Shown piece by piece: positions 10,818 through 28,849 of a DNA stretch of 64,000 bases. Within the stretch, counting starts at the first letter, position 1. Each line of letters opens with the position of its first letter. The stretch lies in NCBI RefSeq assembly GCF_016026235.1, contig NZ_CP065613.1. One strand, given 5' to 3'. The notes below the pieces were generated by a model. It made no database searches. It was given only the letters and a program-made list of their open reading frames with translations, and was not told the DNA's origin. Both the position numbers and the translations under genes were made by a program. Origin of the DNA: Escherichia coli. Lineage in GTDB: Bacteria > Pseudomonadota > Gammaproteobacteria > Enterobacterales > Enterobacteriaceae.

Positions 10818-12264
10818 AATATTTCATCTCCCGAAACAGCCCGACCAGCTCATCTTCGGCACCATTGCGATTGTTCTTGTTCTCTCGACTGCTCATGCTA
10901 GGCAAAGGGAAGCCGTGCAGATCTCCCGGCAGACGAGCATCACGAATGGCACGGATCAGATTGTGCTCCAGCACATAGTTATCCATGGTTGCCAACTGCA
11001 CTACCTGCTGGCGGATGCGGCAGCGATAGGCCCAGATAAAGCACTTCTCGATGGCCAGTGACAGCCCTTGGCTGCCGAACTTGTCGATATAGAAGATCAG
11101 TGCGCAGTCGAACATGGCCCGCACATAACGATCCCCGGTGCGGTGGCGACGCTCGTAGCTGCCCAGGGTCGATAGCACCTTGCTGGCCATCGGTGTCAGC
11201 GTTTCGCCGAGCAGGGTGGCAGATTGCGCCTTGCCGGAATCAGACTCCTCGGCCACGATGGCGGCCACCCGCGTCTGGTAGTACTCGGCCATCTCGAAAA
11301 AGCGCCGACCATTGATGATCATCTGGTCGAGATGAAAGGGAAACGTCATGTACTGGCCGTCAATCTTGCGCTGGTACTGGCGGTTGTACTCATCGACAAA
11401 GTGGTGGGCGATGCGCAGCGACTCCACGTAAGGATAATGCCCTACCCGATCTAGGTTGACCCCCTTGAAGAGATCCACCTCCCCCTTGCCAAAGTAGCGG
11501 GCCGACTTGCCCTCGGCCCACTGGCGTACCCGATAGAGATAGAGGGCGAACAGATTGGCCAGCTCGTCGCTTGGCAGGCGCTCCCAATGGGCGACCGCCT
11601 CGGCCTTGAGATTGGCCTCATGACCGGCAAACTCGCGCAGGTGAAATGCCTTGAGCAGATCGTGAGGAGCCAGATCGCGCCCCCGGGCATTTTGCGAATC
11701 GAAGAACTGGAACGCCTCCGAGATATCCTGCAGTACAAAGCAGACCACCTGACAGCGGTTGAGCAGAAAGTCAATTTGCTGCTCGTCAAACTCAGGGCGG
11801 GCCACCAGCCGACGCAACTCCAGATAGTTGCGTCTGAGGTTGAACTCCGAATCCCGGCTGGGGAAGCGCTGGCGCTGCATAAACGCATCGATAGGTCCAC
11901 GCAAGACCTGCAATTGCTCACGCAGATCCTGACGTTGAAACCGGATACTCTTCTCTTTGCCACTGCGATTTTCGTTATCCAGCACCTCGATCAGCGCCTT
12001 GACGGTCAACATCAGGGTCAGGGTGCGTTGCTGACCATCGACGATATCAAGCATCTCGCCCTGCTCACTATCGGTGTGCTGATGAAACACCACCGAGCCC
12101 AGCCGGTAGGCGCTCTTGTCCTGATGGGTTGCCAAATCGGTAAAGAGATCCGAGATATTCTTGGAGCCCCAGCGGTAAGGTCGCTGATAGCTTGGGATGG
12201 CCAGTTGGGGAATGGCCAGCAACTGGCGTACCGACTGCACTTGATTATTAATGCTCTCCATCAT
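10810..12264 (-). CDS. DUF262 (ParB/GmrS-like NTPase) domain protein, 484 aa; upstream partner of a two-gene type IV restriction-like module
   Basis: '[12 protein letters not shown]' DGQQR motif and '[22 protein letters not shown]' typical of DUF262; overlaps the next gene's start (coupled). Confidence 0.8.
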
Positions 12265-12918: not shown

Positions 12919-13674
12919 CTACATATCTGCCAACAACATCCCAGCCATACCATCCAGTCGCTTCTTAACCTTTTCCCAGCCCGGCATAACCTGCCCCATC
13001 AGACGGTAAAACTCCTCGCTGTGGTTGTGCTCAGCCACATGGCATAACTCATGTAGCAAAACATAATCGATACATTCTGAGGATGCCTTAACCAGCCATG
13101 GATTCAGGGTCAGACAGCCTTTTGCTGAACAGTTGCCCCATTGCGTTTGCATCGCCCGCAGACGTATCGGAGGACGCTCACTGACCCAAAGGGTCTGCGG
13201 AATCAGTAAATCAAGCCTGCGCTGAAAAACATCTCTGGCACGTTCCCGATACCATTCAGCCAGCAAGGCTTTAATCTTTTCTGCCGATTTGTGTCTGACA
13301 GTCACTTCCAGACGCCCACGCAACATTTTCACTCGTTGCGGCACAGTAGCGTCTTCTGTCACTTTCAACTGATATTGCTTACCGAGATAATAATGGCTTT
13401 CTCCGCTGACATACTGACGCGGAACAATGTGTATCTGTTGCTCCCTGAAATCACGCAGTTGCTGGTATATCCAGCGCCCACGTTTTTTCAGCGCAGACAA
13501 TACCTCGTGCTCCGGTGTTTCAGGCGGTACAGAGGCCACAACCCGGCAGTCCGGATAAACCTTAATGAGCACCCTGCCCTTTACGACCTGACGCGGAACA
13601 CACTGTACGACGATGACCTCATCACCATAGACAATGCGTAACGCTTTCATTGATGGCGATTCTTTTTCACTCAT
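12919..13674 (-). CDS. M48-family / DUF45 (YgjP-like) zinc metallohydrolase, 251 aa, coupled to hsdR
   Basis: HExxH motif 'HELCHVAEHNH'; start overlaps the hsdR stop by 4 bp. Confidence 0.75.
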   Translation of the reverse strand: MSEKESPSMKALRIVYGDEVIVVQCVPRQVVKGRVLIKVYPDCRVVASVPPETPEHEVLSALKKRGRWIYQQLRDFREQQIHIVPRQYVSGESHYYLGKQYQLKVTEDATVPQRVKMLRGRLEVTVRHKSAEKIKALLAEWYRERARDVFQRRLDLLIPQTLWVSERPPIRLRAMQTQWGNCSAKGCLTLNPWLVKASSECIDYVLLHELCHVAEHNHSEEFYRLMGQVMPGWEKVKKRLDGMAGMLLADM

Positions 13675-16600
13675 GATTTCATCAAACCAACGCGCAGTAT
13701 CTGGATGATGGTTTCAACAATACGGTTAACCTGATTCATTCCGGCACCAATTTCCCGGCAGGCCGTAAACAGCAGTGGTAGCAGACTTGTCTTAACGACT
13801 TTCTCAATGTCCTGGGGGTTCAGGGAGTTTTCTGCCACCGCTTTGACGATAATGTTGTCCACTTCAAAAGCCAGCTTCGTCCACTTATCCTGCACCTGAA
13901 CGTCGTTTACCGCAAAAACCTCAGGTAGCTCTTTTTTAAATACACCGTAATACGCCTGAGCATGCTTGTTTACCGCCAGTGCATCCGGGATATCGCTGAG
14001 CTTACGGGCTTCAACCTGTTCTTCAAATTCACGGAACAAAAGGTACTGTTTCAGCGGATGGTCAAACAGTTTTTCAGCCTCTTCGATAGCCATACGCAGG
14101 AGTTTTGAAAATGCCTCCTGAGCATACGGGTCATCACGCAATTCCTGCTCAATCATCTTTGTCACACGGGTTTTAATGATGTCGGTTTCATTGCGGGTTT
14201 TATTGTTGTCCCACTCTTCGGGCTTTTCGCTCTTGCCCATTTTACCGACTTCATACACGCCATCCGGTTCACGAACTTCAACGCCGGTGACATGCTTATC
14301 CAGCAGTTTTTTCACCTGCTCAGCGTAGTCGTCATAATTGACCTGCTCTCCACTTACCTGCATCGCCCACTGGCGCAGGCTGGACATCTGTTTTACGGTT
14401 TCTTTATAGAGATTTCGGTCTTGTTCCGTAAAGCTCTTGTCGGTGAAGAAGGTAGCGGACTGCAGTGCCACTTTCAGGCATCCGGCAAAGGCCGTTAACG
14501 CCTCGAAGAAATCATCACGGGTTTTCTGATGGATATCGACCATCTCTCCGTCACGTTCTTCCATTTTAGGCACCAGTACCGCACGTAACTGCTCAGTATC
14601 ATTTTTGTTTTTAACACCGGCAAATATGGCCCACAGCTGGTTATACAGATGCGGCAGGCGCTTGTATTCAGAGCTCATGGCGCTGTACAGCCCGTCAATA
14701 TCTTTGATATCGTATCCGCCCTGAGTTCGGGAGGCGAGGTCCTGATATTTGCCGATAGTCGTGTCCAGCTCAGCCAGAATACCGCGATAATCAATCAGCA
14801 GACCGAACTTTTTTAGTGGATGCAGTCGGTTCACCCGCGCAATCGCCTGGATAAGGTTGTGGGACTTAAGCGGCTTGTCGATATACAGCACGGTATTCTT
14901 CGGCTCATCAAACCCGGTGAGCAGTTTATCAACGACTATCAGCAATTTGAGCTTCTCATCGGTATCGAAACGACTGATGACATTACGGGTATACACAGAC
15001 TCATCCTGCGTGCCGACATTATCCTTCCACCATTTCGTCACTTCCGGCAGTTTGCTTTCATCCACTTCGGTATTCCCTTCCCGGGTATCCGGCGGGCTGA
15101 TAACTACAGCTGACTCAAACAACCCGGCTTCATCAAGATACTTTTTATATTTGATGGCGGAAATCTTGCTGTCGCAGGCAAGCTGGCCTTTCAGTCCCTC
15201 ATCAATATTCTTCGAGAAGTGCGTGGCGATATCGAGTGCGATCAGACGGATGCGATCATCTGCACTATAAACCTCACCTTTACGGGCATATTTACGCTTC
15301 AGGTCGGCTTTTTGCGCTTCGCTTAACCCATCGGTAATACGATCAAACCAGGCATCTATTGCCCGATCGTTAACCTCAAGGTCGGGAATACGTTCTTCAT
15401 ACAGCAAAGGTGTAACGGCTTTATCTTCTACCGCTCGCTGCATGGTATAAGCGTGGACAATCGGCCCGAATTTATTAGTGGTCTTATCTTCTTTCAGCAA
15501 CGGCGTACCGGTAAATGCCACAAAGGCGGCGTTCGGCAGTGCCAGTTTCATTCGCACATGGTTCTCACCCCCCTGGCTCCGGTGTCCTTCATCAATCAGT
15601 ACGATGATGTCGGGGCTGGTATTGACGCATTCAGGAAGTTTTGTCGCTGAATTAAATTTCTGGATAAGGGTGAAGATAATGCGTTCTTTACCAGAGCCAA
15701 TCTGCTGTGCCAGTTTCTGGCCAGAGGTCGCCATTGCTTTGGCCTTATCATCCTTTCCGGCCAGTTCGCCACCAGAAGCGAAAGTGCCGCTGAGCTGCCC
15801 TTCAAGATCGACACGGTCCGTCACCACCACAATGCGACACTGCTTCAGGCTGTCATGAAGAATCAGCGCCTTACTGAGGAACACCATGGTGTACGATTTA
15901 CCGGAGCCCGTGGTATGCCAGATCACACCACCTTCTCTGCCCCCGTCCGGTCTGCGGGTGCTTATGCGTTCCAGCAGCCTTTTAATCCCGAACACCTGCT
16001 GATAGCGGGCGACAATTTTCCCGGTCTTTTTATCAAACAGGGTGAAAAAGCGGGTCATCTCCAGCAGACGTTCCGGTGAAAGCAGGCTGATGAGCAGCTT
16101 ATCCTGCCCGCTGACGGCCAGTTCACCGGCGGCGATTAACTGTTGGTACCAGTCGAGATCGGCTGAAGGACGATGATCAAACAACGCATGAATTTGTTCA
16201 GTCGATAACTTATGGTTGCGCAGCGCATACATCTGCGCGTAAGTAATATCTTCTTCGCGCCATGCCGCCCAGAATTTCATTGGTGTATGACAGGTACCGT
16301 AGCGCCCGTCATGCCCGTTAATCGACAGTAATATCTGGCTGTAAGCAAACAGCTGCGGGATTTCGTCGTTGAGCTGATTGCGGATACTCTGGGATATCCC
16401 TTCGTCAATGGTTGGCCCTTTCTTGCCGTGACCCGCCGGGCTTTTCGCTTCAATGACGGCCAGCGGGATACCATTCACAAAACACACAATATCCGGTCTG
16501 CGGGTTTCGACACCGCCTGACCGCAATACCGTAAATTCTTCGGTAAAATGGAACTGGTTATTTTCCGGATGTTCCCAGTCGATCAGCGCAATGGTGGGGT

Positions 16601-16958
16601 TCACCTTCTTGCCATCGACAAACTCCGTGACGGCGATACCGTAGAGCAGATGGTTATACATCCGTTCATTGGCTTTGAGCAGCCCTTCATTGAGCGCCGG
16701 AGAACAGACCTGTGATATCAGGTTATCCAGTGCTTTTTCCGATAACTGGCAGGTTTTGCCACCCGCCATAAAGGAACGCTTCGACAGCTCTTCACGCAGA
16801 ACCGGACGCAGCACCACCTCATCCTGTTTATAGCCCCGGTAATCCATAATCTGTTTCGGAGATAAAAACGTCCAGCCGAGGCTGGTCAGTAACGTCAGTG
16901 CCGGAATTTTGGCGCTGTATTCTTCCTGGAATTTTGGCGTGTACGTCTGGTTCATCAT
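13671..16958 (-). CDS. hsdR: Type I restriction enzyme R subunit (HsdR), 1095 aa
   Basis: Walker A 'TGSGKSYTM', DEAD-like 'DEGHRSQ', and a size typical of HsdR; sits in an operon with hsdM and hsdS. Confidence 0.9.
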   Translation of the reverse strand: MMNQTYTPKFQEEYSAKIPALTLLTSLGWTFLSPKQIMDYRGYKQDEVVLRPVLREELSKRSFMAGGKTCQLSEKALDNLISQVCSPALNEGLLKANERMYNHLLYGIAVTEFVDGKKVNPTIALIDWEHPENNQFHFTEEFTVLRSGGVETRRPDIVCFVNGIPLAVIEAKSPAGHGKKGPTIDEGISQSIRNQLNDEIPQLFAYSQILLSINGHDGRYGTCHTPMKFWAAWREEDITYAQMYALRNHKLSTEQIHALFDHRPSADLDWYQQLIAAGELAVSGQDKLLISLLSPERLLEMTRFFTLFDKKTGKIVARYQQVFGIKRLLERISTRRPDGGREGGVIWHTTGSGKSYTMVFLSKALILHDSLKQCRIVVVTDRVDLEGQLSGTFASGGELAGKDDKAKAMATSGQKLAQQIGSGKERIIFTLIQKFNSATKLPECVNTSPDIIVLIDEGHRSQGGENHVRMKLALPNAAFVAFTGTPLLKEDKTTNKFGPIVHAYTMQRAVEDKAVTPLLYEERIPDLEVNDRAIDAWFDRITDGLSEAQKADLKRKYARKGEVYSADDRIRLIALDIATHFSKNIDEGLKGQLACDSKISAIKYKKYLDEAGLFESAVVISPPDTREGNTEVDESKLPEVTKWWKDNVGTQDESVYTRNVISRFDTDEKLKLLIVVDKLLTGFDEPKNTVLYIDKPLKSHNLIQAIARVNRLHPLKKFGLLIDYRGILAELDTTIGKYQDLASRTQGGYDIKDIDGLYSAMSSEYKRLPHLYNQLWAIFAGVKNKNDTEQLRAVLVPKMEERDGEMVDIHQKTRDDFFEALTAFAGCLKVALQSATFFTDKSFTEQDRNLYKETVKQMSSLRQWAMQVSGEQVNYDDYAEQVKKLLDKHVTGVEVREPDGVYEVGKMGKSEKPEEWDNNKTRNETDIIKTRVTKMIEQELRDDPYAQEAFSKLLRMAIEEAEKLFDHPLKQYLLFREFEEQVEARKLSDIPDALAVNKHAQAYYGVFKKELPEVFAVNDVQVQDKWTKLAFEVDNIIVKAVAENSLNPQDIEKVVKTSLLPLLFTACREIGAGMNQVNRIVETIIQILRVGLMKS

Positions 16959-17007: not shown

Positions 17008-17691
17008 TCAATGCAGACAGCACTTCTTAAATTTTTTACCGCTGCCACACGGACACGGGTCATTTCGCCCGGGCATGTTTTCTGCCCCCTTCACTGGAAC
17101 AGGCCGGGATGATGCCTCTGACATTCTCACCGACAACCAGTGCTGGTAAAGCGCCAGTGCCGCAGGCTGAATGAGAGTAATACTCTGTTCAAATTGAACA
17201 GGTGACATTTTCTCAACCACTGGGAAGTTCTTTTCGATACCATGAAGGGCTATCGCCTCCAGCGAGGGACGTAAGGCCTCTGGCAAGGCTGACCAGTCAT
17301 CCAGAGACCGGCCTTTCATATACCCGAAACACCACTCTTCGACGATTGTATATGTCTTCCCCTTCACCTCACGTCCATTGAAAATCGGTTCAAACTGTTC
17401 AGGGGCCTCATACAGGCAGCCAGCGATATCGTTCATATGCTGAAAACACAGCCCCACAAAACGCGTCATCTCTTTTTCAGTGGTCCAGTGAGGGTAGTAG
17501 TCACCTCGCCCCCAGATAGCACTAAGCCAGGTATTAGGGGGGATCATATTCGGGCCAGAGACAATCGCTGTCAGAAAGCCATCCAGCTCAGAGAAACAGA
17601 GCACAGAGTCATCATTGCCGTATTTCAGCAACACCTCTTCCAGCCAGTCGATTTCCCGGTCAATCAGCGGCCCGCTTTTCGTCAGTTTCAT
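17008..17691 (-). CDS. YecA-like UPF0149 protein with C-terminal SEC-C zinc motif, 227 aa, embedded between hsdS and hsdR
   Basis: C-terminal '[18 protein letters not shown]' SEC-C motif; overall similarity to the YecA family as I remember it; start overlaps the hsdS stop. Confidence 0.75.
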
Positions 17692-18914
17692 TCGGCAACC
17701 GCCTCATCGACCTTAACACGACGTTTGCCAGTCAATAGCTGTTGCATCAGGGCTTTTTTCTCATCTCTCAGGCAGGCGAGTTTTTTCTCCAGCGTGGAGA
17801 TTTCGGTGTCAGCAGCGGACAGCACGGCGGCGATTTTTTGTTGCTCTTTAATAAATGGGCAAGAAAAGCTTAAAGTTTCAAAATCTTTCTTGGAAAGTTC
17901 TAAAAATGTTGAGCCAGATGATTTTTTGATCATCTCATTTGTGTTCATTTGCAACAAATAATAAATAAATTCGATATTAAACCCTTCATTCGGAATGATG
18001 TTTTTAAAACCTTGATTGGTACAAATTTCCGATGTCGAAATTGCTAAAGCACCAATGGTAGCTCTTGTACATACCATCAAACTACCTTTTGGCAAAAGAA
18101 CAGCTGAGCTATTTAGTAATCCCGCAGGAGTAATTTTTCTACTAGTATTGCTAACGAACCTACCCGTTAATGCAGTAACATCAGTTGGGGTAAGCCATAG
18201 AATATCGCCTTCCCAATACATGGCCATGTTTGTATCAGGTGTTCCACCGGATACAACTTTGCCCATTTGTATTAGTTTAGTAATTTTCCACTCCCCACTA
18301 AACCTCACCCCATTCTCATCCAACAACCGTTTATTCCCGGTAAGCAATTGCTGCATCAGGGCTTTTTTCTGCTGTTGACTGTTGGCGAGAAGGCTTTCCG
18401 TCACCGAAATTGCCTTATCCCAGGCGGTCAGAATTTGAGATATTTTATCTTGTTCACAAATAGCAGGAGTTTTTATGTTTAACGCTCTAATATCAGAAAG
18501 GTTAATTCTAGAAAAGGTAGAACCACCTGCACTTTTTGCTATCTGTCGCTGGACTAAATCTGATTGTAATGTGTAGTAAATAAACCGCCAATCTGCATGG
18601 ATTGCTTTAATTAAGACAGTGTCTTGCCCTAATACAAATGGCTTTTTGGAATCCACATAGCTAACAACACCGACAGACTGGTTACGACTCATAACCAAAT
18701 CACCTTGTTCAACAACACAGTGATCCATCAGAGAGCGATATTCTTCTTCTGTAACTCTTTTTACAGGTGAAATCAGATCTAAGGCTCCCCATTTTATCGT
18801 CCCCGGTGAGACAAGTGGTATTCCCGATTTAACGTACTCAGGAGTCCTGTGTTTGCAATCGATTATCGACGCAACCGATGAGAGTTTCTGAGATGACCAC
18901 CCCTTAGGAATCAT
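17688..18914 (-). CDS. hsdS: Type I restriction-modification specificity subunit (HsdS), two target-recognition domains
   Basis: Two copies of the conserved '[11 protein letters not shown](N/K)(K/R)R' repeat separating two variable domains. Confidence 0.9.
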
Positions 18915-20427
18915 AACCCAACTCCTTCAGATACCCCGCCATCTCCGTTTCCAGCTTCGCCAGTTCCGCCTTCAGTTGCTCGCGTTCGGCGCGTACGGCC
19001 AGCAAATCAATCTCGTCTTCTTCTTCAAAGGTATCGACATAGCGCGGAATATTGAGGTTGTAATCGTTGTCCTGAATTTCCTTCAGGCTGGCAAGATAGG
19101 CGTATTTCTCGACGTTATCGCCATCACGGTAGGTCTTGACGATTTTCTTAATGTTTTCTTCGCTAAGCTGGTTCTGGTTTTTACCTGCCTTGAATTCACG
19201 GCTGGCATCGATAAACAGCACCTTGTCATCAACTTTCTGCTTTTTGAAAATCAGAATCGCAGCCGGAATCCCCGTACCGTAGAACAGTTTTTCCGGCAGA
19301 CCAATTACCGCATCCAGCAAATTTTCGTCGATCAGTTTCTGGCGAATTTTACCTTCGCTGGAGCCACGGAAAAGCACACCGTGTGGCACAACTACGCCCA
19401 TACGGCCAGTTCCCGGTTTCAGGGTTTCGATCATATGCGAGATAAAAGCGTAATCTCCTTTAGTCTTCGGCGGTACACCGCGACGAAAACGGCCAAACTT
19501 ATCGTTCTCGGCCTCGTCATGGCCCCACTTATCGAGGCTGAACGGTGGGTTAGCGGTCACGATATCAAACAGCATCAGGTCGCCATTTTTATCGAGCAGC
19601 TTCGGGTTGCGAATGGTATCGCCCCACTCGATTTTATGGTTGTCTTCCCCGTGCAGGAACATATTCATTTTCGCCAGCGACCACGTAGAACCGATCGCTT
19701 CCTGACCGAACAATGCATAGTTACGACTATCATGCCCGGAGACAATTTTACGCCCACACTTCATCAATAATGAACCGGAACCACAGGCTGGATCGCAGAT
19801 GGTATCACCCGGTTGCGGATCGAGCAGTTCTGCAATCAGGTCCGAAACTTCCGGCGGGGTATAGAACTCCCCGGCTTTCTGCCCACCGCTGGCGGCAAAG
19901 TTTTTGATCAGGTATTCGTAAGCATTGCCGATAACGTCCAGCGTACCGACACGACTCGGCTTCAGGTTGAGATCTTCACCGGCGAAGTCTTCCAGTAGCT
20001 GACGAAGGATGGTGTTTTTCTGTTTTTCTTCGCCAAGACGATCGGTGTTAAACGAAATATCCTGGAACACGCTTTTCCCGGCATCTTTCAGTTTGGTTCC
20101 GTTGGCTTCTTCGATTGCATGCAGAGCCTGATCGATACGCTCACCGTTACCCGGCTCATGGCGGCGTTCGTACAGCGCATAAAAGCTGGCACTTTTTGGC
20201 AGTACAAAACGCTCGTTGGCCATCATCGCTTCAATCAGTTCCGGCACATCGCCATACTGTTCTTTGTATTCGTCATAGTGATCCTGCCAGACATCTGAAA
20301 TGTACTTGAGGAACAGCATGGTAAGGATAAAGTCTTTATAGGTATCAGCACTGATGGTGCCACGGAACGTATCACACGCGGCCCACAGGGCTTTGTTGAT
20401 CGTGTCCTGACTGATTTTGTCGTTCAT
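18904..20427 (-). CDS. hsdM: Type I restriction-modification N6-adenine DNA methyltransferase (HsdM), 507 aa
   Basis: AdoMet motif 'DPACGSGSLL' and catalytic 'NPPF' ('IVTANPPFS'). Confidence 0.9.
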   Translation of the reverse strand: MNDKISQDTINKALWAACDTFRGTISADTYKDFILTMLFLKYISDVWQDHYDEYKEQYGDVPELIEAMMANERFVLPKSASFYALYERRHEPGNGERIDQALHAIEEANGTKLKDAGKSVFQDISFNTDRLGEEKQKNTILRQLLEDFAGEDLNLKPSRVGTLDVIGNAYEYLIKNFAASGGQKAGEFYTPPEVSDLIAELLDPQPGDTICDPACGSGSLLMKCGRKIVSGHDSRNYALFGQEAIGSTWSLAKMNMFLHGEDNHKIEWGDTIRNPKLLDKNGDLMLFDIVTANPPFSLDKWGHDEAENDKFGRFRRGVPPKTKGDYAFISHMIETLKPGTGRMGVVVPHGVLFRGSSEGKIRQKLIDENLLDAVIGLPEKLFYGTGIPAAILIFKKQKVDDKVLFIDASREFKAGKNQNQLSEENIKKIVKTYRDGDNVEKYAYLASLKEIQDNDYNLNIPRYVDTFEEEDEIDLLAVRAEREQLKAELAKLETEMAGYLKELGYDS

Positions 20428-20799
20428 GAATCATCCTGGTCTGAAGAAAAAGCTAGCGATGCAGGGCTTTGCATCTTAAAAATTTCGGTAAATGATACCG
20501 TAAGATGCCTCCCCTGACACGCCAATATCGCAGCATTCAGGTTTGCATCATCCCCGTAATATCGACATGAGACAGACTGACACAACCTGGCTCGTCACTC
20601 GCTAAAAACCAATTATCTTAGTAAGATAGCATCCATATTAGCCATGGTGTAAAACTGCCGTTGGGGTAATGATGATCCATATATCACCCGTTCTGGTGTG
20701 TGAAGCTGACATCATCCATAATCGGCAACGTTGATGCCCTTTGATAGTAATGATGACCGTCAATGTGATTCCCCTGCTGACTGGAGGTCTCCGGATAGT

Positions 20800-21966
20800 A
20801 TGAGTATTACCAACTGCGTTATCGGCCCACTTTACGATGAGCAAATAAAAAAAACACTTATGTATGCTGACCATAAATTCAAGCGGCTAATGAATACACG
20901 AATGTCGTTACTCGAACATTTATCACCCCACTATGACTTATCTTCCATGTTCAGCTATGAGTTGGAGGGAAGAGTTTTTCGGATTAAATTGATCAAGCCT
21001 GAGATTAAATTATCTCGCCAGCAGTTGATCTTCTCCTCACTCTTTTTAGAGCAAGATTTTCTAAAAGAATATAAAAAACACATCTCAAATACTCTACAAA
21101 AAACAATCAAACAGTGCATTAAAAAATACAAACAAAAAATCAAAATCGAGCCTTCTATTTTAGATTACATATCAGCGTCACCCCGCAATACGTCGAGTTA
21201 TGTATTACATGAGATAGTTTCTCAATGTGAACATTGCGATGAAATTCGCAATATTAAAAATGATATATTGCTTGATGAACTAACGTTGAATGGCCGGATC
21301 ACTAACATTTCAAAATACATTAAAAACAGTCAAGATAAAATCGTCGAACATATAGAGTTCTGCACTCATAAACTTGTCAATATAAGTCGTAAGAATCGTC
21401 ACATTTTCAACAGCACCACAATCTCTGGCAGAAAACCCAACATCACTGGTGTTTTACTTTGCCTTTCAGAATTGATAAGCAACCTGCATATTTACCCAAC
21501 TGAAATTAATAATATAAGCAATGCCATAATATTAAGCATTGTATACTCTGTACTTCAACATCTTCAATCCGGAAGAAAAACAGAAAAAACAAAAACCTCT
21601 CCAGCACTGGATTTCATCCCCACCATCATCGCACCTCATGTTTTCTACCTGGCGAAACGCGAAAAATCCTCTCAATATAAATACATTGAAAAAGAATATC
21701 TTCTCGGCCAGTTACTTATATTTTTGATGTATAAAACAGTTTACTACTCGATTCATAACATCAGGGTAAGCCGTAAGCATTTCTATAACGATATAAAACC
21801 AAAATTAATGATACTAAAAAAAGAAAGCTTATTAAGCACCAATTTCATGAAAAATCGAAGAGAGATTAGTGGTGAAGTCTTTGGTGATGTTGGTAGTATT
21901 GAGGCTGATTTTCGAGAAATCAGCACATTGATTCATCGGCGAAAGGCTCTGTTTATTTCCTTTTAA
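20800..21966 (+). CDS. Hypothetical protein, very AT-rich, no recognisable domain (~388 aa from the ATG at 20800; ORF extends to 20731)
   Basis: Long ORF in a strongly AT-rich stretch; Lys/Ile/Asn-rich; SD-like 'ggagg' upstream of the ATG at 20800. Confidence 0.5.
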   Translation: MSITNCVIGPLYDEQIKKTLMYADHKFKRLMNTRMSLLEHLSPHYDLSSMFSYELEGRVFRIKLIKPEIKLSRQQLIFSSLFLEQDFLKEYKKHISNTLQKTIKQCIKKYKQKIKIEPSILDYISASPRNTSSYVLHEIVSQCEHCDEIRNIKNDILLDELTLNGRITNISKYIKNSQDKIVEHIEFCTHKLVNISRKNRHIFNSTTISGRKPNITGVLLCLSELISNLHIYPTEINNISNAIILSIVYSVLQHLQSGRKTEKTKTSPALDFIPTIIAPHVFYLAKREKSSQYKYIEKEYLLGQLLIFLMYKTVYYSIHNIRVSRKHFYNDIKPKLMILKKESLLSTNFMKNRREISGEVFGDVGSIEADFREISTLIHRRKALFISF

Positions 21967-22368: not shown

Positions 22369-23499
22369 ATGTTCGAGAAAATGAAAAACAATGTAACCCG
22401 TATGCCGGGGAATTTAACAAAACTTAATCAATACCAAAAAGACATTGATCACCTGTCTAAACTATTTTCTGAACAGCAATTACTGGAACTAATGACGACT
22501 ACCGAATCCGATCAAATATTGCAAATGAAGCCTGCTGTAGATATTCTTCATGTACTATCTCCATCAGCATCTACTGCTAAGCATATCAATTTTTTTCAGC
22601 ACGTCCCAGTGCTCGAACAATGGTTAAAAAAGGAGTGCACTGCCTTTAATTTACTGGCAGTACATTTCTATTCACAGCAATCCCGTAAAAATGTAATTCC
22701 GAAAGAAATCTGTATGCTACTGGATGCATTTATTGAAACTGAACTTTCATCTGCGGTTAATGGTAATAATAATGCCGAACTCCTTTCTTGTTTTCAAAAC
22801 ACGCTGGATAAAATGTGCAATACACTAACATTTATAGACCACACAGTTACGGAACAATCAGGTCAAGTAGCAATGCTTGATTTCAGCGCAAAAATGCATG
22901 AATATACTGTTGAAATCAGGACCTTTTTGAAGTCTGAATACTGGCTAAACAAACTACCTAAGGATATTAACATTCCAGCCATTGACCTATCCTGGCTTGT
23001 GTTTTGTTACTTTTGCTCTGAATATCTTTTTGTATTTATTCAAACAACGCTCAATACAATGAAGGCAGGAAAAATCATTCGTGATAACTACCTTTATCAT
23101 CCTAAAATGATTGCATTGATCATTTTATCTATGCTGCCTTATGAAGTCATTCATAACGATGGATCACTGAATAAGTTTAAAACGCCTTTAACCAGCCCTG
23201 ATGAGTTCATAATCAAATCTATTTGCATTAAAGGTAAGCAAAACACTACAGGGCATAAAAAAGATATAGAACAATTGCTTCGTAAGACATATATCTATAT
23301 TGCATTACTCTTAAACCCTGAGTGGGCACCATCTTCCAAGGAGTTGATTTCCTTTTTATCAGGAAAGTCCTCAGTGATAAGTGGTTCACTCAACTTCCAG
23401 TCAACCTCCAGTGGTCTGGGTGTTCAAACAAACAATATAACTCTTCTTAAGAATGAGGTTTACTTCGAAAAAATAGCGAACAAGATCATGAAACTGTAG
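22369..23499 (+). CDS. Hypothetical protein, AT-rich, no recognisable domain, 376 aa
   Basis: Long ORF in the same AT-rich stretch; 'gaggataaaatt' SD precedes the ATG. Confidence 0.5.
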   Translation: MFEKMKNNVTRMPGNLTKLNQYQKDIDHLSKLFSEQQLLELMTTTESDQILQMKPAVDILHVLSPSASTAKHINFFQHVPVLEQWLKKECTAFNLLAVHFYSQQSRKNVIPKEICMLLDAFIETELSSAVNGNNNAELLSCFQNTLDKMCNTLTFIDHTVTEQSGQVAMLDFSAKMHEYTVEIRTFLKSEYWLNKLPKDINIPAIDLSWLVFCYFCSEYLFVFIQTTLNTMKAGKIIRDNYLYHPKMIALIILSMLPYEVIHNDGSLNKFKTPLTSPDEFIIKSICIKGKQNTTGHKKDIEQLLRKTYIYIALLLNPEWAPSSKELISFLSGKSSVISGSLNFQSTSSGLGVQTNNITLLKNEVYFEKIANKIMKL

Positions 23500-23642: not shown

Positions 23643-24779
23643 ATGCCTATTCTGGATCTGCGTTTCAGCAACAAATCAATTCACCAACTTCCACATCCCC
23701 TCACGGGTTGTCAGGAATACCGTGATATTCACTGCCAAAACCTGCGTGCTCTGGTGTATCCCAATCGGATCACGCTGGCCTTTCGTGCCACTATAAACAA
23801 TCAGCGTATATATGAAACCCTGGGTCAGTTCCCTCAGCTCTGCGTTGAGGATGCCCGTCAGCATGTGATGAAACTGCTTGCTGATAAAAATCGTCTTGCG
23901 GTTCAGTCCCGTCGATTCACTGTGGAACAGGCCATCAATGACCTGTGGCTACCGGATTTGCAGTTGTATAAAAAGAGTCCTCAGTCAGAGTTGTCAAAAC
24001 TCAACCTCTACGTTCGCCCGTTCTGGGGCAAGCGGCAACTTCGCGACATCACGGCAGGAGAACTAGAACAATATGCTGCTGGCTTACGGGAAAAATTACG
24101 TCCGTCAACAGTAAACCGTATCCTCGCAATATTGTCCAAAATATGCTCTCTGGCAGTACGTGCTGGATGGATCACACATTCCCCGATGTCACATGTCCGC
24201 TATCTGAAAGAAAATAACATTCGCTATCGCACACTGTCAGCGACAGAAATCCCGCGCTTTATTGACGCGGCAACAGCGCTGCAAACACCGGCAGCTGATT
24301 CTATATTGCTTGCTCTTTATACGGGGATGCGTATTGGTGAGGTATGTACCCTGAAATGGGAGTACTGGCACCCGGATATGCATCAACTCATACTGCCTGA
24401 TACAAAGTCCGGACACCCTTTCACCTGCCCACTTGCACCTCCAGCCATTGCAGTTGTCCAGTGCCAGCAGGACCTGATGCTCAGCAAAACTTACATTTTT
24501 CCACAACTAACCGACAATGCCCGCCCTCTGGCATATCCGCGTGCAACCTTTGCCCGTATTTGCCGGGATGCCGACATTGATAACCTGCGGATGCATGACC
24601 TGCGCCGTACCTTTGCCACCCGGGTACTACAGGCGACCGGGGATATTGCAATCGCTTCCCATCTGCTAAATCACCATTCACTCACGGCGACCCGTCGCTA
24701 CGCTTTTCACAATGCAGCGACATCACACGCAGTGGTTTCTCAGGTCATAGAAAGTTATGACACAAAAATGAACCTATGA
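23643..24779 (+). CDS. Tyrosine recombinase / phage-type integrase (second integrase of the island), 378 aa
   Basis: Catalytic-domain pattern 'LYTGMRIGEV...MHDLRRTFATR...LNHHSLTATRRYA' (R..H-x-x-R..Y); SD 'aggaga' before the ATG. Confidence 0.8.
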   Translation: MPILDLRFSNKSIHQLPHPLTGCQEYRDIHCQNLRALVYPNRITLAFRATINNQRIYETLGQFPQLCVEDARQHVMKLLADKNRLAVQSRRFTVEQAINDLWLPDLQLYKKSPQSELSKLNLYVRPFWGKRQLRDITAGELEQYAAGLREKLRPSTVNRILAILSKICSLAVRAGWITHSPMSHVRYLKENNIRYRTLSATEIPRFIDAATALQTPAADSILLALYTGMRIGEVCTLKWEYWHPDMHQLILPDTKSGHPFTCPLAPPAIAVVQCQQDLMLSKTYIFPQLTDNARPLAYPRATFARICRDADIDNLRMHDLRRTFATRVLQATGDIAIASHLLNHHSLTATRRYAFHNAATSHAVVSQVIESYDTKMNL

Positions 24780-24921: not shown

Positions 24922-25050
24922 ATGTATTTAACCATTAAGCAGTTCGCAGAAAGATTTAATCTTTCTGCATCCACGGTTGCGTCAGATATATCGCGCAACC
25001 CCGGAAAACTCCCGCCCTTCATCAGAATTGGGCGGGCTATACGATTCTCT
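24922..25050 (+). pseudogene. AlpA-like helix-turn-helix regulator/excisionase gene truncated by IS1
   Basis: 'MYLTIKQFAERFNLSASTVASDISRNPGKLPPFIRIGRAIRF' resembles AlpA-family phage regulators; reading frame runs into the IS1 terminal repeat at 25051. Confidence 0.55.
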
Positions 25051-25065
25051 GGTAATGACTCCAAC

Positions 25066-25569
25066 TTACTGATAGTGTTTTATGTTCAGATAATGCCCGA
25101 TGACCTTGTCATGCAGCTCCACCGATTTTGAGAACGACAGTGACTTCCGTCCCAGCCTTGCCAGATGTTGTCTCAGATTCAGATTATGTCGCTCAATGCG
25201 CTGAGTGTAACGCTTGCTGATAACGTGCAGCTTTCCCTTCAGGCGTGATTCATACAGCGGCCAGCCATCCGTCATCCATACCACGACCTCAAAGGCCGAC
25301 AGCAGGCTCAGAAGACGCTCCAGTGTGGCCAGAGTGCGTTCACCGAAGACGTGCGCCACAACCGTCCTCCGTATCCTGTCATACGCGTAAAACAGCCAGC
25401 GCTGACGTGATTTAGCACCGACGTAGCCCCACTGTTCGTCCATTTCAGCGCAGACAATCACATCACTGCCCGGTTGTATGCGCGAGGTTACCGACTGCGG
25501 CCTGAGTTTTTTAAGTGACGTAAAACCGTGTTGAGGCCAACGCCCATAATGCGTGCACTGGCGCGACAT
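25066..25569 (-). CDS. insB: IS1 InsB frame (variant isoform)
   Basis: -1 frame overlapping insA within the IS1. Confidence 0.85.
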
Positions 25570-25763
25570 CCGACGCCATTCATGGCCATATCAATGATTT
25601 TCTGGTGCGTACCGGGCTGAGAGGCGGTGTAAGTGAACTGTAGTTGCCATGTTTTACGGCAATGAGAGCAGAGATAGCGCTGATGTCCGGCAGTGCTTTT
25701 GCCGTTACGCACCACGCCTTCAGTAGCGGAGCAGGAAGGACATCTGATGGAAATGGAAGCCAC
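25488..25763 (-). CDS. insA: IS1 InsA (variant isoform)
   Basis: '[37 protein letters not shown]...'. Confidence 0.9.
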
Positions 25764-25936
25764 GCAAGCACCTTAAAATCACCATCATACACTAAATCAG
25801 TAAGTTGGCAGCATTACCCATCTTCAAATGGGAGTACCAGCTCTGTTTTCAACAGACTCATTACTGACTCCGGAAGAAGGAGCGACGGCAGGTCTTGCCA
25901 GTTCGAGACAAATTTCATTGAATAATCCTCATAAAC

Positions 25937-25972
25937 AAAAAACCCGATACGATTAACGTATCGGGGTTTTTA
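25937..25972. terminator. Rho-independent terminator-like hairpin (aaaaaacccgatacg-attaa-cgtatcggggttttt), bidirectional
   Basis: Perfect 10-bp stem flanked by A-run and T-run. Confidence 0.7.
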
Positions 25973-26013
25973 TACATCCGCATAACTATTATTTACAGTT
26001 ATTGGTTTTCTAT

Positions 26014-26256
26014 TTAAATTCTTTCATAATACCCACAGTCCATACAGATAAGCACTGGCGCATTATTTCTTTCACACTGTTCAAGGAATCCAAATAGTTT
26101 TTTAATAGCCTTAATAATTTCTTTCAGTATTTCAGGTAAAAACTCCAGGCTAATATACCCAGAGCGTTTATTATCGGTTATCGATGGCAGTTTTCCTGCT
26201 GAACTTATCAATGTATTACAACTGCCACACTGTGGGCATTTTAAATGCATCCTCAT
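26014..26256 (-). CDS. Small zinc-ribbon protein (two CxxC pairs), 80 aa, AT-rich
   Basis: 'CPQCGSC' near the N-terminus and 'CMDCGYY' near the C-terminus. Confidence 0.45.
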   Translation of the reverse strand: MRMHLKCPQCGSCNTLISSAGKLPSITDNKRSGYISLEFLPEILKEIIKAIKKLFGFLEQCERNNAPVLICMDCGYYERI

Positions 26257-26286
26257 TCTCCATATTTATAGTTTGCTAAAAAGTAG

Positions 26287-27486
26287 TCACATCTGCTTCG
26301 TAGCCGCAGTATTCAGAAGCAGGTCAGTCACTCCCTGCCCTGTCTGACGCATACGTTCCGGTGTTAATTTCGCGTAACGTTCTGTACTCTGAATACTGGC
26401 ATGCGCCAGTTGGGCTTTAACGTCATACAGGCTGAATTGACCACTCGAAACCAGTAAAGAGGCAACAGAATGACGTGTGGTGTGAAAACAGACTTCATTC
26501 TTGTCTATACCGCACTGTGCCAGTATTTTTTCATATGCCCATCGGGGTTCCGATATCGGTTTTCCATTATCCTTAATGGCGAACAGATACGGATTACTGC
26601 CAACTCGTGGGATAGCATCAATAATCGATAATGCGGCATCGCTTAGATATACCGTCCGACTGCGACCATTTTTTGTATAAGGAATGAACAGAGTACGATT
26701 GGCCCGGTCGATATGTTCATGCCTGACATTAAGCATTTCTGATTTGCGTGTACCGGTTAACAACAACATGGCTATCAATCCCCCGGCAGCTTTGTTGGGA
26801 TATTGGGTAGCAGCGTCAAGAATGCGCCTGATCTCATCAGCATCAAAAAAGCGCGTCCGCTGATTATTCTCTTTCAGTAAAGGGATCTTATCGGCTTCAT
26901 TCTTTTCCAGCACATCCTGTCGCAACGCATAACGCCCCATCGTTTTCAGAATAGCAAGGGCTCTGTTACAGGTAGACGGCGCATATTGCTGCCCGTGAAT
27001 ACGCCCCTCCAGCATGTCAAACAGCACCTGTTGTATCTCTCTGGCCCTGAGATCGCAGTAACGTATCTTTCCCAGACGAGGTTCAATGTATTGCGTGAAA
27101 CGCTGAACATCCTTATCCCAGGACTTTTTATGGCGTTTGATGAACGGAACATAGGTCTGGTGAAAAAACTCACTAAGTGTTGGCATCGCACGATAATTAT
27201 CGCGTTCTGCTTTAGGGTCATTTCCCAGTGCAATCGCCTCCTTATGACGGCGAGCTATCTGGCGAGCTGTCCCCACATCAATTTCAGGGAATCTGCCAAT
27301 ACTGATACTTTTTTTGGTACCGTGGAATGTGTAGCGCAGGAGGAAACGTTTGTTACCCGTTCGACCTGAGAGACATTTGAGGCCAATAACTTCGGTATCA
27401 GATACCTCAAGCTCTGTAGATCTGGTATCTGTGTTTGCCGGAAGGGCTTTGATGGATGAATTGGTGAATCGGAAGGATTTTTGCAT
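26287..27486 (-). CDS. int: P4-type tyrosine integrase (tRNA-proximal integrase of the island); probable start at the Met at 27486, ORF extends to 27516
   Basis: 'LLLTGTRKSEMLNVRHEHI' and 'CFHTTRHSVASLL...STERYAKL' catalytic motifs; N-terminal 'FTNSSIKALP' arm-binding region; 'gaggat' SD before the ATG at 27486. Confidence 0.85.
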   Translation of the reverse strand: MQKSFRFTNSSIKALPANTDTRSTELEVSDTEVIGLKCLSGRTGNKRFLLRYTFHGTKKSISIGRFPEIDVGTARQIARRHKEAIALGNDPKAERDNYRAMPTLSEFFHQTYVPFIKRHKKSWDKDVQRFTQYIEPRLGKIRYCDLRAREIQQVLFDMLEGRIHGQQYAPSTCNRALAILKTMGRYALRQDVLEKNEADKIPLLKENNQRTRFFDADEIRRILDAATQYPNKAAGGLIAMLLLTGTRKSEMLNVRHEHIDRANRTLFIPYTKNGRSRTVYLSDAALSIIDAIPRVGSNPYLFAIKDNGKPISEPRWAYEKILAQCGIDKNEVCFHTTRHSVASLLVSSGQFSLYDVKAQLAHASIQSTERYAKLTPERMRQTGQGVTDLLLNTAATKQM

Positions 27487-27566
27487 ATTTATCCTCATGT
27501 ATCTGATTGATATCATGGAGATAATATATATCTGAAGGTGTTTTTATTACGGGGCAGGATTGAAGA

Positions 27567-28307: not shown

Positions 28308-28491
28308 AGCATTACAGCTTGCTCAGCGGCCCCCTTCCCGGAAGCGTACCGGAAAACAGGCAAAGCGGCCTGGTTCTCTATGCTGGAAGCGACACGTTCG
28401 ATTCGGCATTGCCAGGCTGAAGATTGCAGCTCATCGCACCCCGTGAGCACAGGATATGCACAGGACATGAATTTCAGGCACAAAAAAACCA

Positions 28492-28520
28492 CCCGGAGGT
28501 GGTTTCACGACACTGCTTAT
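28492..28520 (-). terminator. Rho-independent terminator of the glyW-cysT-leuZ tRNA operon
   Basis: Minus-strand hairpin 'gaaaccacctccgggtggttt' followed by a T-run, directly 3' of tRNA-Leu. Confidence 0.8.
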
Positions 28521-28546
28521 TGCTTTGATTATTCTTGTCTTTCCCA

Positions 28547-28633
28547 TGGTACCCGGAGCGGGACTTGAACCCGCACAGCGCGAACGCCGAGGGATTTTAA
28601 ATCCCTTGTGTCTACCGATTCCACCATCCGGGC
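28547..28633 (-). tRNA. leuZ: tRNA-Leu (anticodon UAA), 87 nt
   Basis: Minus-strand sequence gcccggatggtggaatcggtagacacaagggattTAAaatccc...gggtacca; long variable arm and CCA end. Confidence 0.95.
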
Positions 28634-28645
28634 TCGGGAAGAAAA

Positions 28646-28719
28646 TGGAGGCGCGTTCCGGAGTCGAACCGGACTAGACGGATTTGCAATCCGCTACATA
28701 ACCGCTTTGTTAACGCGCC
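28646..28719 (-). tRNA. cysT: tRNA-Cys (anticodon GCA), 74 nt
   Basis: Minus-strand sequence ggcgcgttaacaaagcggttatgtagcggattGCAaatccg...cgcctcca. Confidence 0.95.
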
Positions 28720-28773
28720 AAATTCTTCAGGCCTTTCAGCCAGACATCCGCTTGACGCCGATGTCTTTTAAAC

Positions 28774-28849
<76 letters not shown>

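Follow-up and report, generated by a model that had tools for sequence, protein, structure and literature searches.

yecL, a YecA-family gene located between hsdS and hsdR in a Type I restriction–modification operon of Escherichia coli

The stretch of Escherichia coli DNA analyzed here (64,000 nucleotides of contig NZ_CP065613.1, assembly GCF_016026235.1; hereafter the window) carries a Type I restriction–modification (R-M) operon with an additional gene between hsdS and hsdR, an open reading frame (ORF) at positions 17008-17691 on the minus strand, which is here labeled yecL (product, YecL). The original prediction had described the product as a 227-aa UPF0149/YecA-like protein with a C-terminal SEC-C motif, encoded about 11 kb inside an island, and had proposed that it is either a captured host gene or a paralogue recruited into the R-M system. 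The assignment to the family is confirmed by matches to Pfam and NF007704 profiles, and the position by the distance of 10.9 kb between yecL and the glyW-cysT-leuZ cluster (28547-28849). RefSeq already labels the product a YecA family protein, and PADLOC already catalogues the arrangement as the defense candidate PDC-S12. The present analysis adds its separation from the native yecA, the empty or variable slot that it occupies, its recurrence in Pseudomonas and with a second Type I family, the mosaic alleles of its N-terminal domain, and a caveat concerning PDC-S12.

Gene order of the hsd operon and architecture of YecL

The operon in the window is intact and has the gene order hsdM-hsdS-yecL-hsdR-M48. 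In the direction of transcription, its features are:

20492..20520, minus strand: sigma-70-like promoter match upstream of hsdM (consensus scan), the only candidate for an operon promoter
18904..20427, minus strand: hsdM, Type I methyltransferase subunit (Pfam N6_Mtase and HsdM_N)
17688..18914, minus strand: hsdS, Type I specificity subunit (Pfam Methylase_S, two stretches)
17008..17691, minus strand: yecL, 227-aa YecA-family paralogue
13671..16958 (RefSeq start 16955), minus strand: hsdR, Type I restriction/translocase subunit (Pfam HSDR_N, SWI2_SNF2, and T1R_D3-like; PADLOC REase_I, 1365 bits)
12919..13674, minus strand: M48/YgjP-like metallopeptidase gene (Pfam YgjP-like, E 6.7e-58), overlapping the stop of hsdR

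The ATG of yecL, which is preceded by GAGG, overlaps the TGA of hsdS (ATGA), and an overlap of 4 bp or 1 bp between these genes is present in the window and in comparison loci L003, L007, L008, L009, L015, and L031. The spacer between yecL and hsdR measures 49 bp; a consensus scan detected neither a promoter nor a terminator match in this spacer, and terminator-like matches are located just inside hsdR (minus strand, 16885-16872). Promoter and terminator matches are no more numerous than in shuffled sequence and therefore constitute weak evidence. Among solved structures, HsdM is closer to the M protein of EcoR124 (237 bits) than to that of EcoKI (99 bits). The M48 gene follows hsdR in all related loci, including those of Pseudomonas and Vibrio, and is a constant 3' member of the module; the target-recognition domains of hsdS are just 34-41% identical between loci.

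By its sequence, YecL is a member of the YecA family with the full YecA architecture. It consists of an N-terminal UPF0149 domain of about 180 residues (residues 15-185; Pfam PF03695, E 4.5e-30), a variable linker, and a C-terminal, SecA-like SEC-C metal-binding domain (residues 209-225; E 2.2e-10), and scores 348.7 bits against the NCBIfam equivalog model for YecA (NF007704; cut-off, 149) and 133 bits against TIGR02292. The metal ligands C213, C215, S217, C224, and C225 are conserved (CxCxSG...CC), and the C-terminal motif matches the metal-binding-domain peptides of SecA and YchJ in the PDB. YecL retains all 25 positions that are conserved in at least 90% of 103 YecA-family members and shows only 11 clade-fixed differences to housekeeping YecA. 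Its predicted fold is helical and of the YgfB type, with 11-14% identity to YgfB, which places the likeness at the level of the fold only; the prediction is based on the 103 sequences, as a first prediction from 19 close sequences was unusable (predicted local distance difference test score, 59). A structure comparison detected no neighbors other than YgfB-type proteins, and Pfam detected only UPF0149 and SEC-C but no catalytic or effector domain, such as a nuclease or NTPase. The domain fusions of distant relatives (DUF6933, DUF1186) provided no functional hint.

The metal-binding domain of E. coli YecA (AscA) binds SecB (dissociation constant, ~150 nM) and 70S ribosomes, and the protein prevents aggregation (bioRxiv 10.1101/2020.07.21.215244); YecA of strain K-12 binds Zn/Fe and acts as a holdase. 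YecL resembles YecA in its two domains and its length, in the conserved residues, and in the combination of a YgfB-type fold with the CxCxSG...CC knuckle, but differs from it by forming a separate clade, by its location in a mobile Type I R-M operon, by its coexistence with the native copy, and by the shuffled alleles of its N-terminal domain.

Origin, sequence evolution, and distribution of yecL

YecL shares 58% amino-acid identity over its full length with the YecA of the same strain, and megablast established no connection between the two genes. The relatives of YecL in a large protein database show a bimodal distribution, with embedded-type proteins at 68-97% identity and housekeeping YecA of Enterobacterales as the next group, at no more than 59%. 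The embedded-type proteins are monophyletic (neighbor-joining, 98-100% bootstrap); they branch beside the entire clade of housekeeping Enterobacterales proteins and within no genus, although the bootstrap value at this point is only 45%. With its location inside the hsd operon and its placement in a separate clade, yecL is not an orthologue of housekeeping yecA, whose copies adjoin tyrP.

In the near-identical genome of strain FDAARGOS_943, the native yecA (221 aa), followed by tyrP, starts about 140 bp to the left of window position 1, and leuZ is located at most 6 kb upstream of yecA in 30 of 68 housekeeping loci of other Enterobacteriaceae, which agrees with the statement in the original prediction that yecA of K-12 lies downstream of leuZ, exactly where the island is inserted. 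Because the native gene is the first one past the attachment site, yecL might have originated by a recent capture or duplication of its neighbor, if the leuZ island had been excised imprecisely or rearranged, and a chimeric sequence (P0018) with a housekeeping N-terminal half and an island-type C-terminal half would be in line with such an exchange. However, the divergence between the two genes is too high, the embedded type forms a clade of its own, yecL lies in the middle of an operon and not at the edge of the island, and the module also occurs on 347 plasmids, nearly all of Klebsiella, and on islands inserted elsewhere than at leuZ. We therefore consider this scenario refuted as a recent event and assign it only a minimal residual probability. 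Of the two alternatives, recruitment of a paralogue is the better one as far as comparative genomics shows: yecL is translationally coupled to hsdS and moves with the hsd module among leuZ islands, other islands, and plasmids. The hsd-linked copies are widespread and not unique to this genome, and an ancient capture from an Enterobacterales-like yecA is possible from the tree.

Two metagenomic contigs contain sequence of both gene types. The chimera P0018 (ENA metagenome, 3.2-kb contig) is of the housekeeping E. coli/Salmonella type in residues ~1-125 and of the embedded type in the rest; it is either a recombinant of native and embedded genes or an assembly chimera. A contig of Enterobacterales (L019 1-9000) starts with pgsA, glyW-cysT-leuZ, an integrase fragment, an insertion sequence (IS), an ABM gene, and a YecL-like gene, and continues with a 141-aa ORF, a YeeE-like gene, a resident yecA (192 aa, without the SEC-C motif), ftnA, yecR, and flhDC. 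It thus encodes a basal relative of YecL (67% identical) in a remnant of a leuZ island without hsd genes, 2 kb away from a truncated native yecA.

The evolution of yecL differs from that of its neighbors. Between loci that share 92-99% identity in HsdM and HsdR, the identity of YecL is just 66-97%. The ratio of nonsynonymous to synonymous substitutions (dN/dS) is 0.05-0.28 for yecL and 0.02-0.10 for the flanking genes, which shows, at the level of sequence comparison, that yecL is under purifying selection; its dS is 3-4 times higher than that of the flanking genes. In a sliding window, the first ~500 nt of yecL are 70-89% identical and lie between flanks that are 98-100% identical, and the last ~170 nt, which encode the linker and the metal-binding domain, are 94-100% identical. 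This pattern indicates an exchange of alleles by recombination in the putative client-binding domain, with the linker and the metal-binding domain remaining fixed. Positive selection on YecL is not supported, because high divergence goes along with high dS and the mosaic pattern; the sole pair with a dN/dS above 1 (L003/L008) is due to a frameshift that affects part of a metagenomic contig.

At least 420 of the 5426 complete genomes of E. coli contain yecL DNA; the true number may be higher, as alleles below ~80% identity escape megablast. The associated hsdR family occurs in 542. The 347 plasmids, which are large, encode YecL (at least 80% identity) next to hsdS, and the module is common on such Klebsiella plasmids of clinical isolates. 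Judging from the names of cluster members and from species representatives, YecL occurs also in Citrobacter, Salmonella, Enterobacter, Leclercia, Pantoea, Serratia, Yersinia, Morganella, Providencia, Buttiauxella, Intestinirhabdus, and Franconibacter. The gene directly follows hsdS in all eight further species representatives, and wherever the flank suffices, each enterobacterial locus has the order hsdS, yecL, variable cassette, hsdR, M48 gene, with hsdS and yecL overlapping by 4 bp or 1 bp. Integration sites of the module comprise leuZ, a different island with CbtA/CbeA and anti-restriction genes (L015), and IncFIB plasmids. The slot between hsdS and hsdR is occupied as follows:

Empty: E. 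coli 23CRST051 (L010)
yecL: the window
yecL and a cold-shock-domain (CSD) protein of ~600 aa: many E. coli and Klebsiella plasmid loci
CSD protein alone: Vibrio vulnificus

The CSD protein (L002 10194-12056, L009 12644-14491, L007 3801-5585, L023 8001-9845) has a weak N-terminal cold-shock domain; no other recognizable domain or solved relative was detected. A Fic gene adjoins it in an integrative and conjugative element (ICE), and in Erwinia it stands alone on the chromosome; these occurrences identify it as an independent cassette, and it looks like a stand-alone, uncharacterized defense candidate. A two-gene system formed by YecL and the CSD protein was rejected, because the latter occurs without YecL in the hsd slot of Vibrio, in the ICE, and as a solo gene, and is absent from the window.

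Three genomes of Pseudomonas possess a homologous hsd operon (HsdM 70%, HsdR 60%, and M48 protein ~50% identical) with a YecA-like gene between hsdS and hsdR, whose product is 52-54% identical to YecL and has a full SEC-C domain. In none of 200 bootstraps do these embedded proteins join their enterobacterial counterparts; they tend to cluster with the native YecA of Halopseudomonas (52%), and the enterobacterial embedded proteins with housekeeping YecA of Enterobacterales (45%). In Morganella, the gene for a YecL of 83% identity comes directly after an hsdS that belongs to another Type I family, whose HsdM is only 42% identical. The slot directly after hsdS is thus kept in at least ten genera, two Type I families, and two orders, apparently by different clades of YecA. 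Downstream of the YecA-like gene, the loci of Pseudomonas differ: two encode a HigB-like toxin together with one (L087 6925-7586) or two (L097 6848-8251) small ORFs without Pfam matches, and the third (L090 6989-8935) a 648-aa Schlafen/AlbA_2 protein with a HATPase_c_4 domain, which means that the slot gathers different cassettes also in another bacterial order.

Possible roles of YecL

The combined evidence is best explained if yecL is a mobile, diverged paralogue of YecA/AscA and a putatively long-standing accessory of a module with the order hsdM-hsdS-yecL-(variable cassette)-hsdR-M48. With regard to function, we tentatively favor, at somewhat less than an even chance, that YecL is an R-M-linked accessory chaperone of this mobile Type I module. 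By analogy with YecA, YecL may dock on SecB and ribosomes through its SecA-like domain and use its UPF0149 domain to hold a protein client, which would be linked to restriction. The client could be a nascent Hsd subunit, with YecL timing or assisting the assembly of the enzyme as the module enters a new host, or an anti-restriction protein of a phage or plasmid that would be caught during its synthesis; in either version, YecL would tune or protect R-M while staying outside the enzyme. Type I R-M systems are usually seen as three-subunit machines, and the presence of a chaperone paralogue after hsdS in many genera, on plasmids, and on islands points to an extra layer of control or protection of restriction. 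For YecA, a conserved but poorly understood protein of E. coli, yecL may offer a natural handle on what the members of the family bind.

Several observations weigh against such a role. yecL is absent from about 23% of the E. coli genomes that carry this hsdR family, and strain 23CRST051 encodes hsdM, hsdS, hsdR, and the M48 gene without it (HsdR and HsdM 97% identical; hsdS-hsdR gap, 21 bp). Conversely, YecL occurs without hsd genes in the leuZ remnant of L019 and beside a degraded hsdS in Providencia. The distance between hsdS and the YecA-like gene is ~300 nt in Pseudomonas, so the coupling is not universal, and the trees suggest a repeated recruitment, or a replacement by host copies, with weakly supported deep nodes (neighbor-joining bootstraps of 45-52% for those linking embedded to host clades). 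The high dS argues that the divergence of YecL reflects old, recombining alleles, with positive selection not demonstrated. In view of its close resemblance to ordinary YecA, with few radical clade-specific changes, YecL may simply do the job of YecA, and its link to restriction or phage defense is one proposed from comparative genomics. An obligatory subunit of the Type I enzyme was rejected, because a 97%-identical R-M system exists without yecL and V. vulnificus has a CSD protein in the slot; by the comparison of loci, yecL is a dispensable accessory gene of the operon.

The anticodon nuclease PrrC provides a precedent for a different role. It is an accessory encoded between hsdS and hsdR of EcoprrI (Type IC) that is dispensable for restriction, combines an ATPase with a nuclease domain, and is triggered by the Stp peptide of phage T4. 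YecL would be an independent, embedded defense gene if it formed a PrrC-like second line that is silenced by, or co-expressed with, the Type I enzyme and, upon infection, disrupts translation or Sec export via its ribosome/SecB-binding domain. YecL shares with PrrC the position between hsdS and hsdR and the status of a dispensable accessory, but differs from it by the lack of a catalytic domain. PrrC is almost exclusively embedded in Type I R-M, genes embedded in such operons are enriched for defense functions, and the PDC candidates are genes that were identified inside BREX, DISARM, and Type I R-M systems ("guilt-by-embedding"; Payne et al., bioRxiv 10.1101/2024.01.29.577857). In PADLOC-DB, the embedded YecL matches PDC-S12 over its full length (324 bits, E 9.9e-98); the slot after yecL holds other defense-like or toxin cassettes (CSD protein, HigB-like pairs, Schlafen/AlbA_2 ATPase), and YecL can persist in the absence of hsd genes. 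However, YecL has no enzymatic or effector domain and only YgfB-type relatives by fold, retains nearly all residues of the housekeeping protein, and overproduction of the latter has not been reported to be toxic but even suppresses a secB defect. Moreover, the hidden Markov model (HMM) of PDC-S12 (PDLC04917) scores the native YecA (L001 4566-5231) higher than YecL (366 versus 324 bits), and the match is therefore not specific for defense. We consider an independent defense function unlikely.

The same caveat applies to PDC-S12 in general. It is a candidate and not a characterized system, and because the HMMs of the PDC candidates derive from broad clusters that take in all homologues in RefSeq (Payne et al., bioRxiv 10.1101/2024.01.29.577857), a call alone cannot tell an embedded paralogue from the native gene. 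Survey counts of PDC-S12 are probably inflated, as the model scores housekeeping YecA higher; surveys of Klebsiella, for example, may count the native yecA. The literature searched contains no report of an anti-phage test of PDC-S12, and the parts of the supplementary tables of Payne et al. that were searched contain no match to PDC-S12, YecA, or UPF0149.

YecL may also be a passenger without a role in R-M, either an additional chaperone of the YecA type that aids the element or its host (e.g., under export load or envelope stress) or a gene merely linked to the often-exchanged hsdS segment. Its dispensability for the operon, its typical YecA sequence, an elevated dS that fits linkage to the recombining hsdS region, and the mobility of YecA-family genes beside transposases of the Tn3 family (Xanthomonas and Pseudomonas plasmids) and IS66 would all agree with this explanation. 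It is nevertheless not a likely one, because the slot has been retained across genera, Type I families, and orders, the translation of yecL is tightly coupled to hsdS, and the gene is under purifying selection although its hosts already own a native yecA. A regulator of transcription, which would bind RNA polymerase or an antiterminator and time hsdR relative to hsdM and hsdS, is improbable. The idea is encouraged by the UPF0149 proteins YgfB, which binds the antiterminator AlpA, and MtvS, which binds RNA polymerase's beta' subunit and up-regulates a CRISPR-Cas locus, and by the location of yecL between the modification genes and hsdR, which has no recognizable promoter of its own. Yet YgfB (Pseudomonas aeruginosa) and MtvS (Francisella) are chromosomal housekeeping proteins of a subfamily without SEC-C that resembles YecL only in its fold, whereas the characterized member of the YecA subfamily, to which YecL belongs, binds ribosomes and SecB. 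A further scenario, which we regard as quite unlikely, extends the accessory-chaperone interpretation: chaperones of the YecA type that dock on ribosomes and SecB would have been recruited more than once to the slot after hsdS, independently in Enterobacterales and Pseudomonas and into two Type I families, because Type I restriction would have a step that is coupled to translation. This step could be a co-translational capture of anti-restriction proteins such as Ocr or ArdA, or a ribosome-coupled hand-over of HsdS/HsdR that times restriction in a new host. An arms race, or a matching to the variable HsdS, would in that case be reflected in the recombination among the N-terminal alleles of YecL.

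The island at leuZ and other genomic contexts

The island that contains the hsd module spans ~28.4 kb and is flanked by a 114-bp repeat of leuZ; the repetition of window positions 1-114 at 28491-28605 indicates that its boundaries are real. Apart from the hsd module, the following features were identified:

1..114, no strand assigned: left boundary of the island, a direct repeat of the 3' half of leuZ and downstream sequence (aligns with 28491-28605; BLAST)
8775-10817 and 10810-12264, minus strand: two genes of the DUF262/GmrSD family downstream of the hsd module, neighboring defense cargo (Pfam GmrSD_N, DUF7834, and GmrSD_C; resembling PADLOC HEC-06)
23643..24779, plus strand: tyrosine recombinase of the island (Pfam Phage_integrase; RefSeq annotation of the identical locus)
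26287-27516, minus strand: second tyrosine recombinase (Pfam Phage_integrase; RefSeq annotation of the identical locus)
28547-28633, minus strand: leuZ (tRNA-Leu-UAA; ARAGORN), with the right copy of the attachment-site (att) repeat at 28491-28605 (alignment)

Pipolins integrate at tRNA-Leu between pgsA and yecA (PMC11551731), which explains why an island of this class adjoins the native yecA; those of enterobacteria exchange Type I RM, PDC-S12, Hhe, and HEC-06 among their defense systems (PMC11551731). The island in the window resembles pipolins in its integration site between pgsA/leuZ and yecA, its direct repeats, and its tyrosine recombinases, and its cargo comprises the same four systems. 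No ORF of the size of piPolB (~850 aa) is located at 20.4-28.5 kb of the window, a region that was not searched for piPolB directly. Related islands encode either a hypothetical protein of 866 aa or a protein that is annotated as DNA polymerase. A segment of ~10 kb of the FDAARGOS_943 island (L001 27472-37944) is absent at window positions 24944-26720, with an IS1 at the junction; the 866-aa hypothetical protein encoded in this segment is probably the PolB of a pipolin, and the copy of the island in the window appears to have lost its polymerase module.

Insertion sequences have modified the island also elsewhere. In comparison with FDAARGOS_943, the window contains an extra element of the IS110 family near the left att repeat (350-1827; transposase, 577-1773), and a copy of IS1 (4341-5109) splits the defense gene hhe (DUF4011 helicase-nuclease) into 5088-8600 and 2076-4355. 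The DUF262/GmrSD pair follows the module also in L015. Two ORFs between hsdM and the integrase gene (20731-21966, plus strand, 411 aa; 22369-23499, plus strand, 376 aa) have no match in Pfam or PADLOC.

Distant YecA-family genes (25-33% identity) are present on plasmids of Xanthomonas, Pseudomonas, and Acidovorax (L012, L013, L014), where they either directly follow transposase genes of the Tn3 family that are accompanied by a PIN toxin-antitoxin pair or lie beside IS66, which documents that genes of this family are mobile also in other contexts; 82 Xanthomonas plasmids carry such a distant homolog. Matches in a phage database were rejected as evidence for phage-borne YecL, because they represent native yecA at the ends of prophage records: six records of phage collections (ON470596, NC_049344, and others) have the native yecA of E. 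coli at their start (positions 4-690), and the boundaries of these prophages at leuZ appear to have been drawn too wide. In Citrobacter amalonaticus (L064) and C. koseri (L060), the 6 kb upstream of the native yecA contain a 56-nt repeat of leuZ and that end of the module which carries hsdR and M48; this indicates that the leuZ site of Citrobacter holds the same kind of island.

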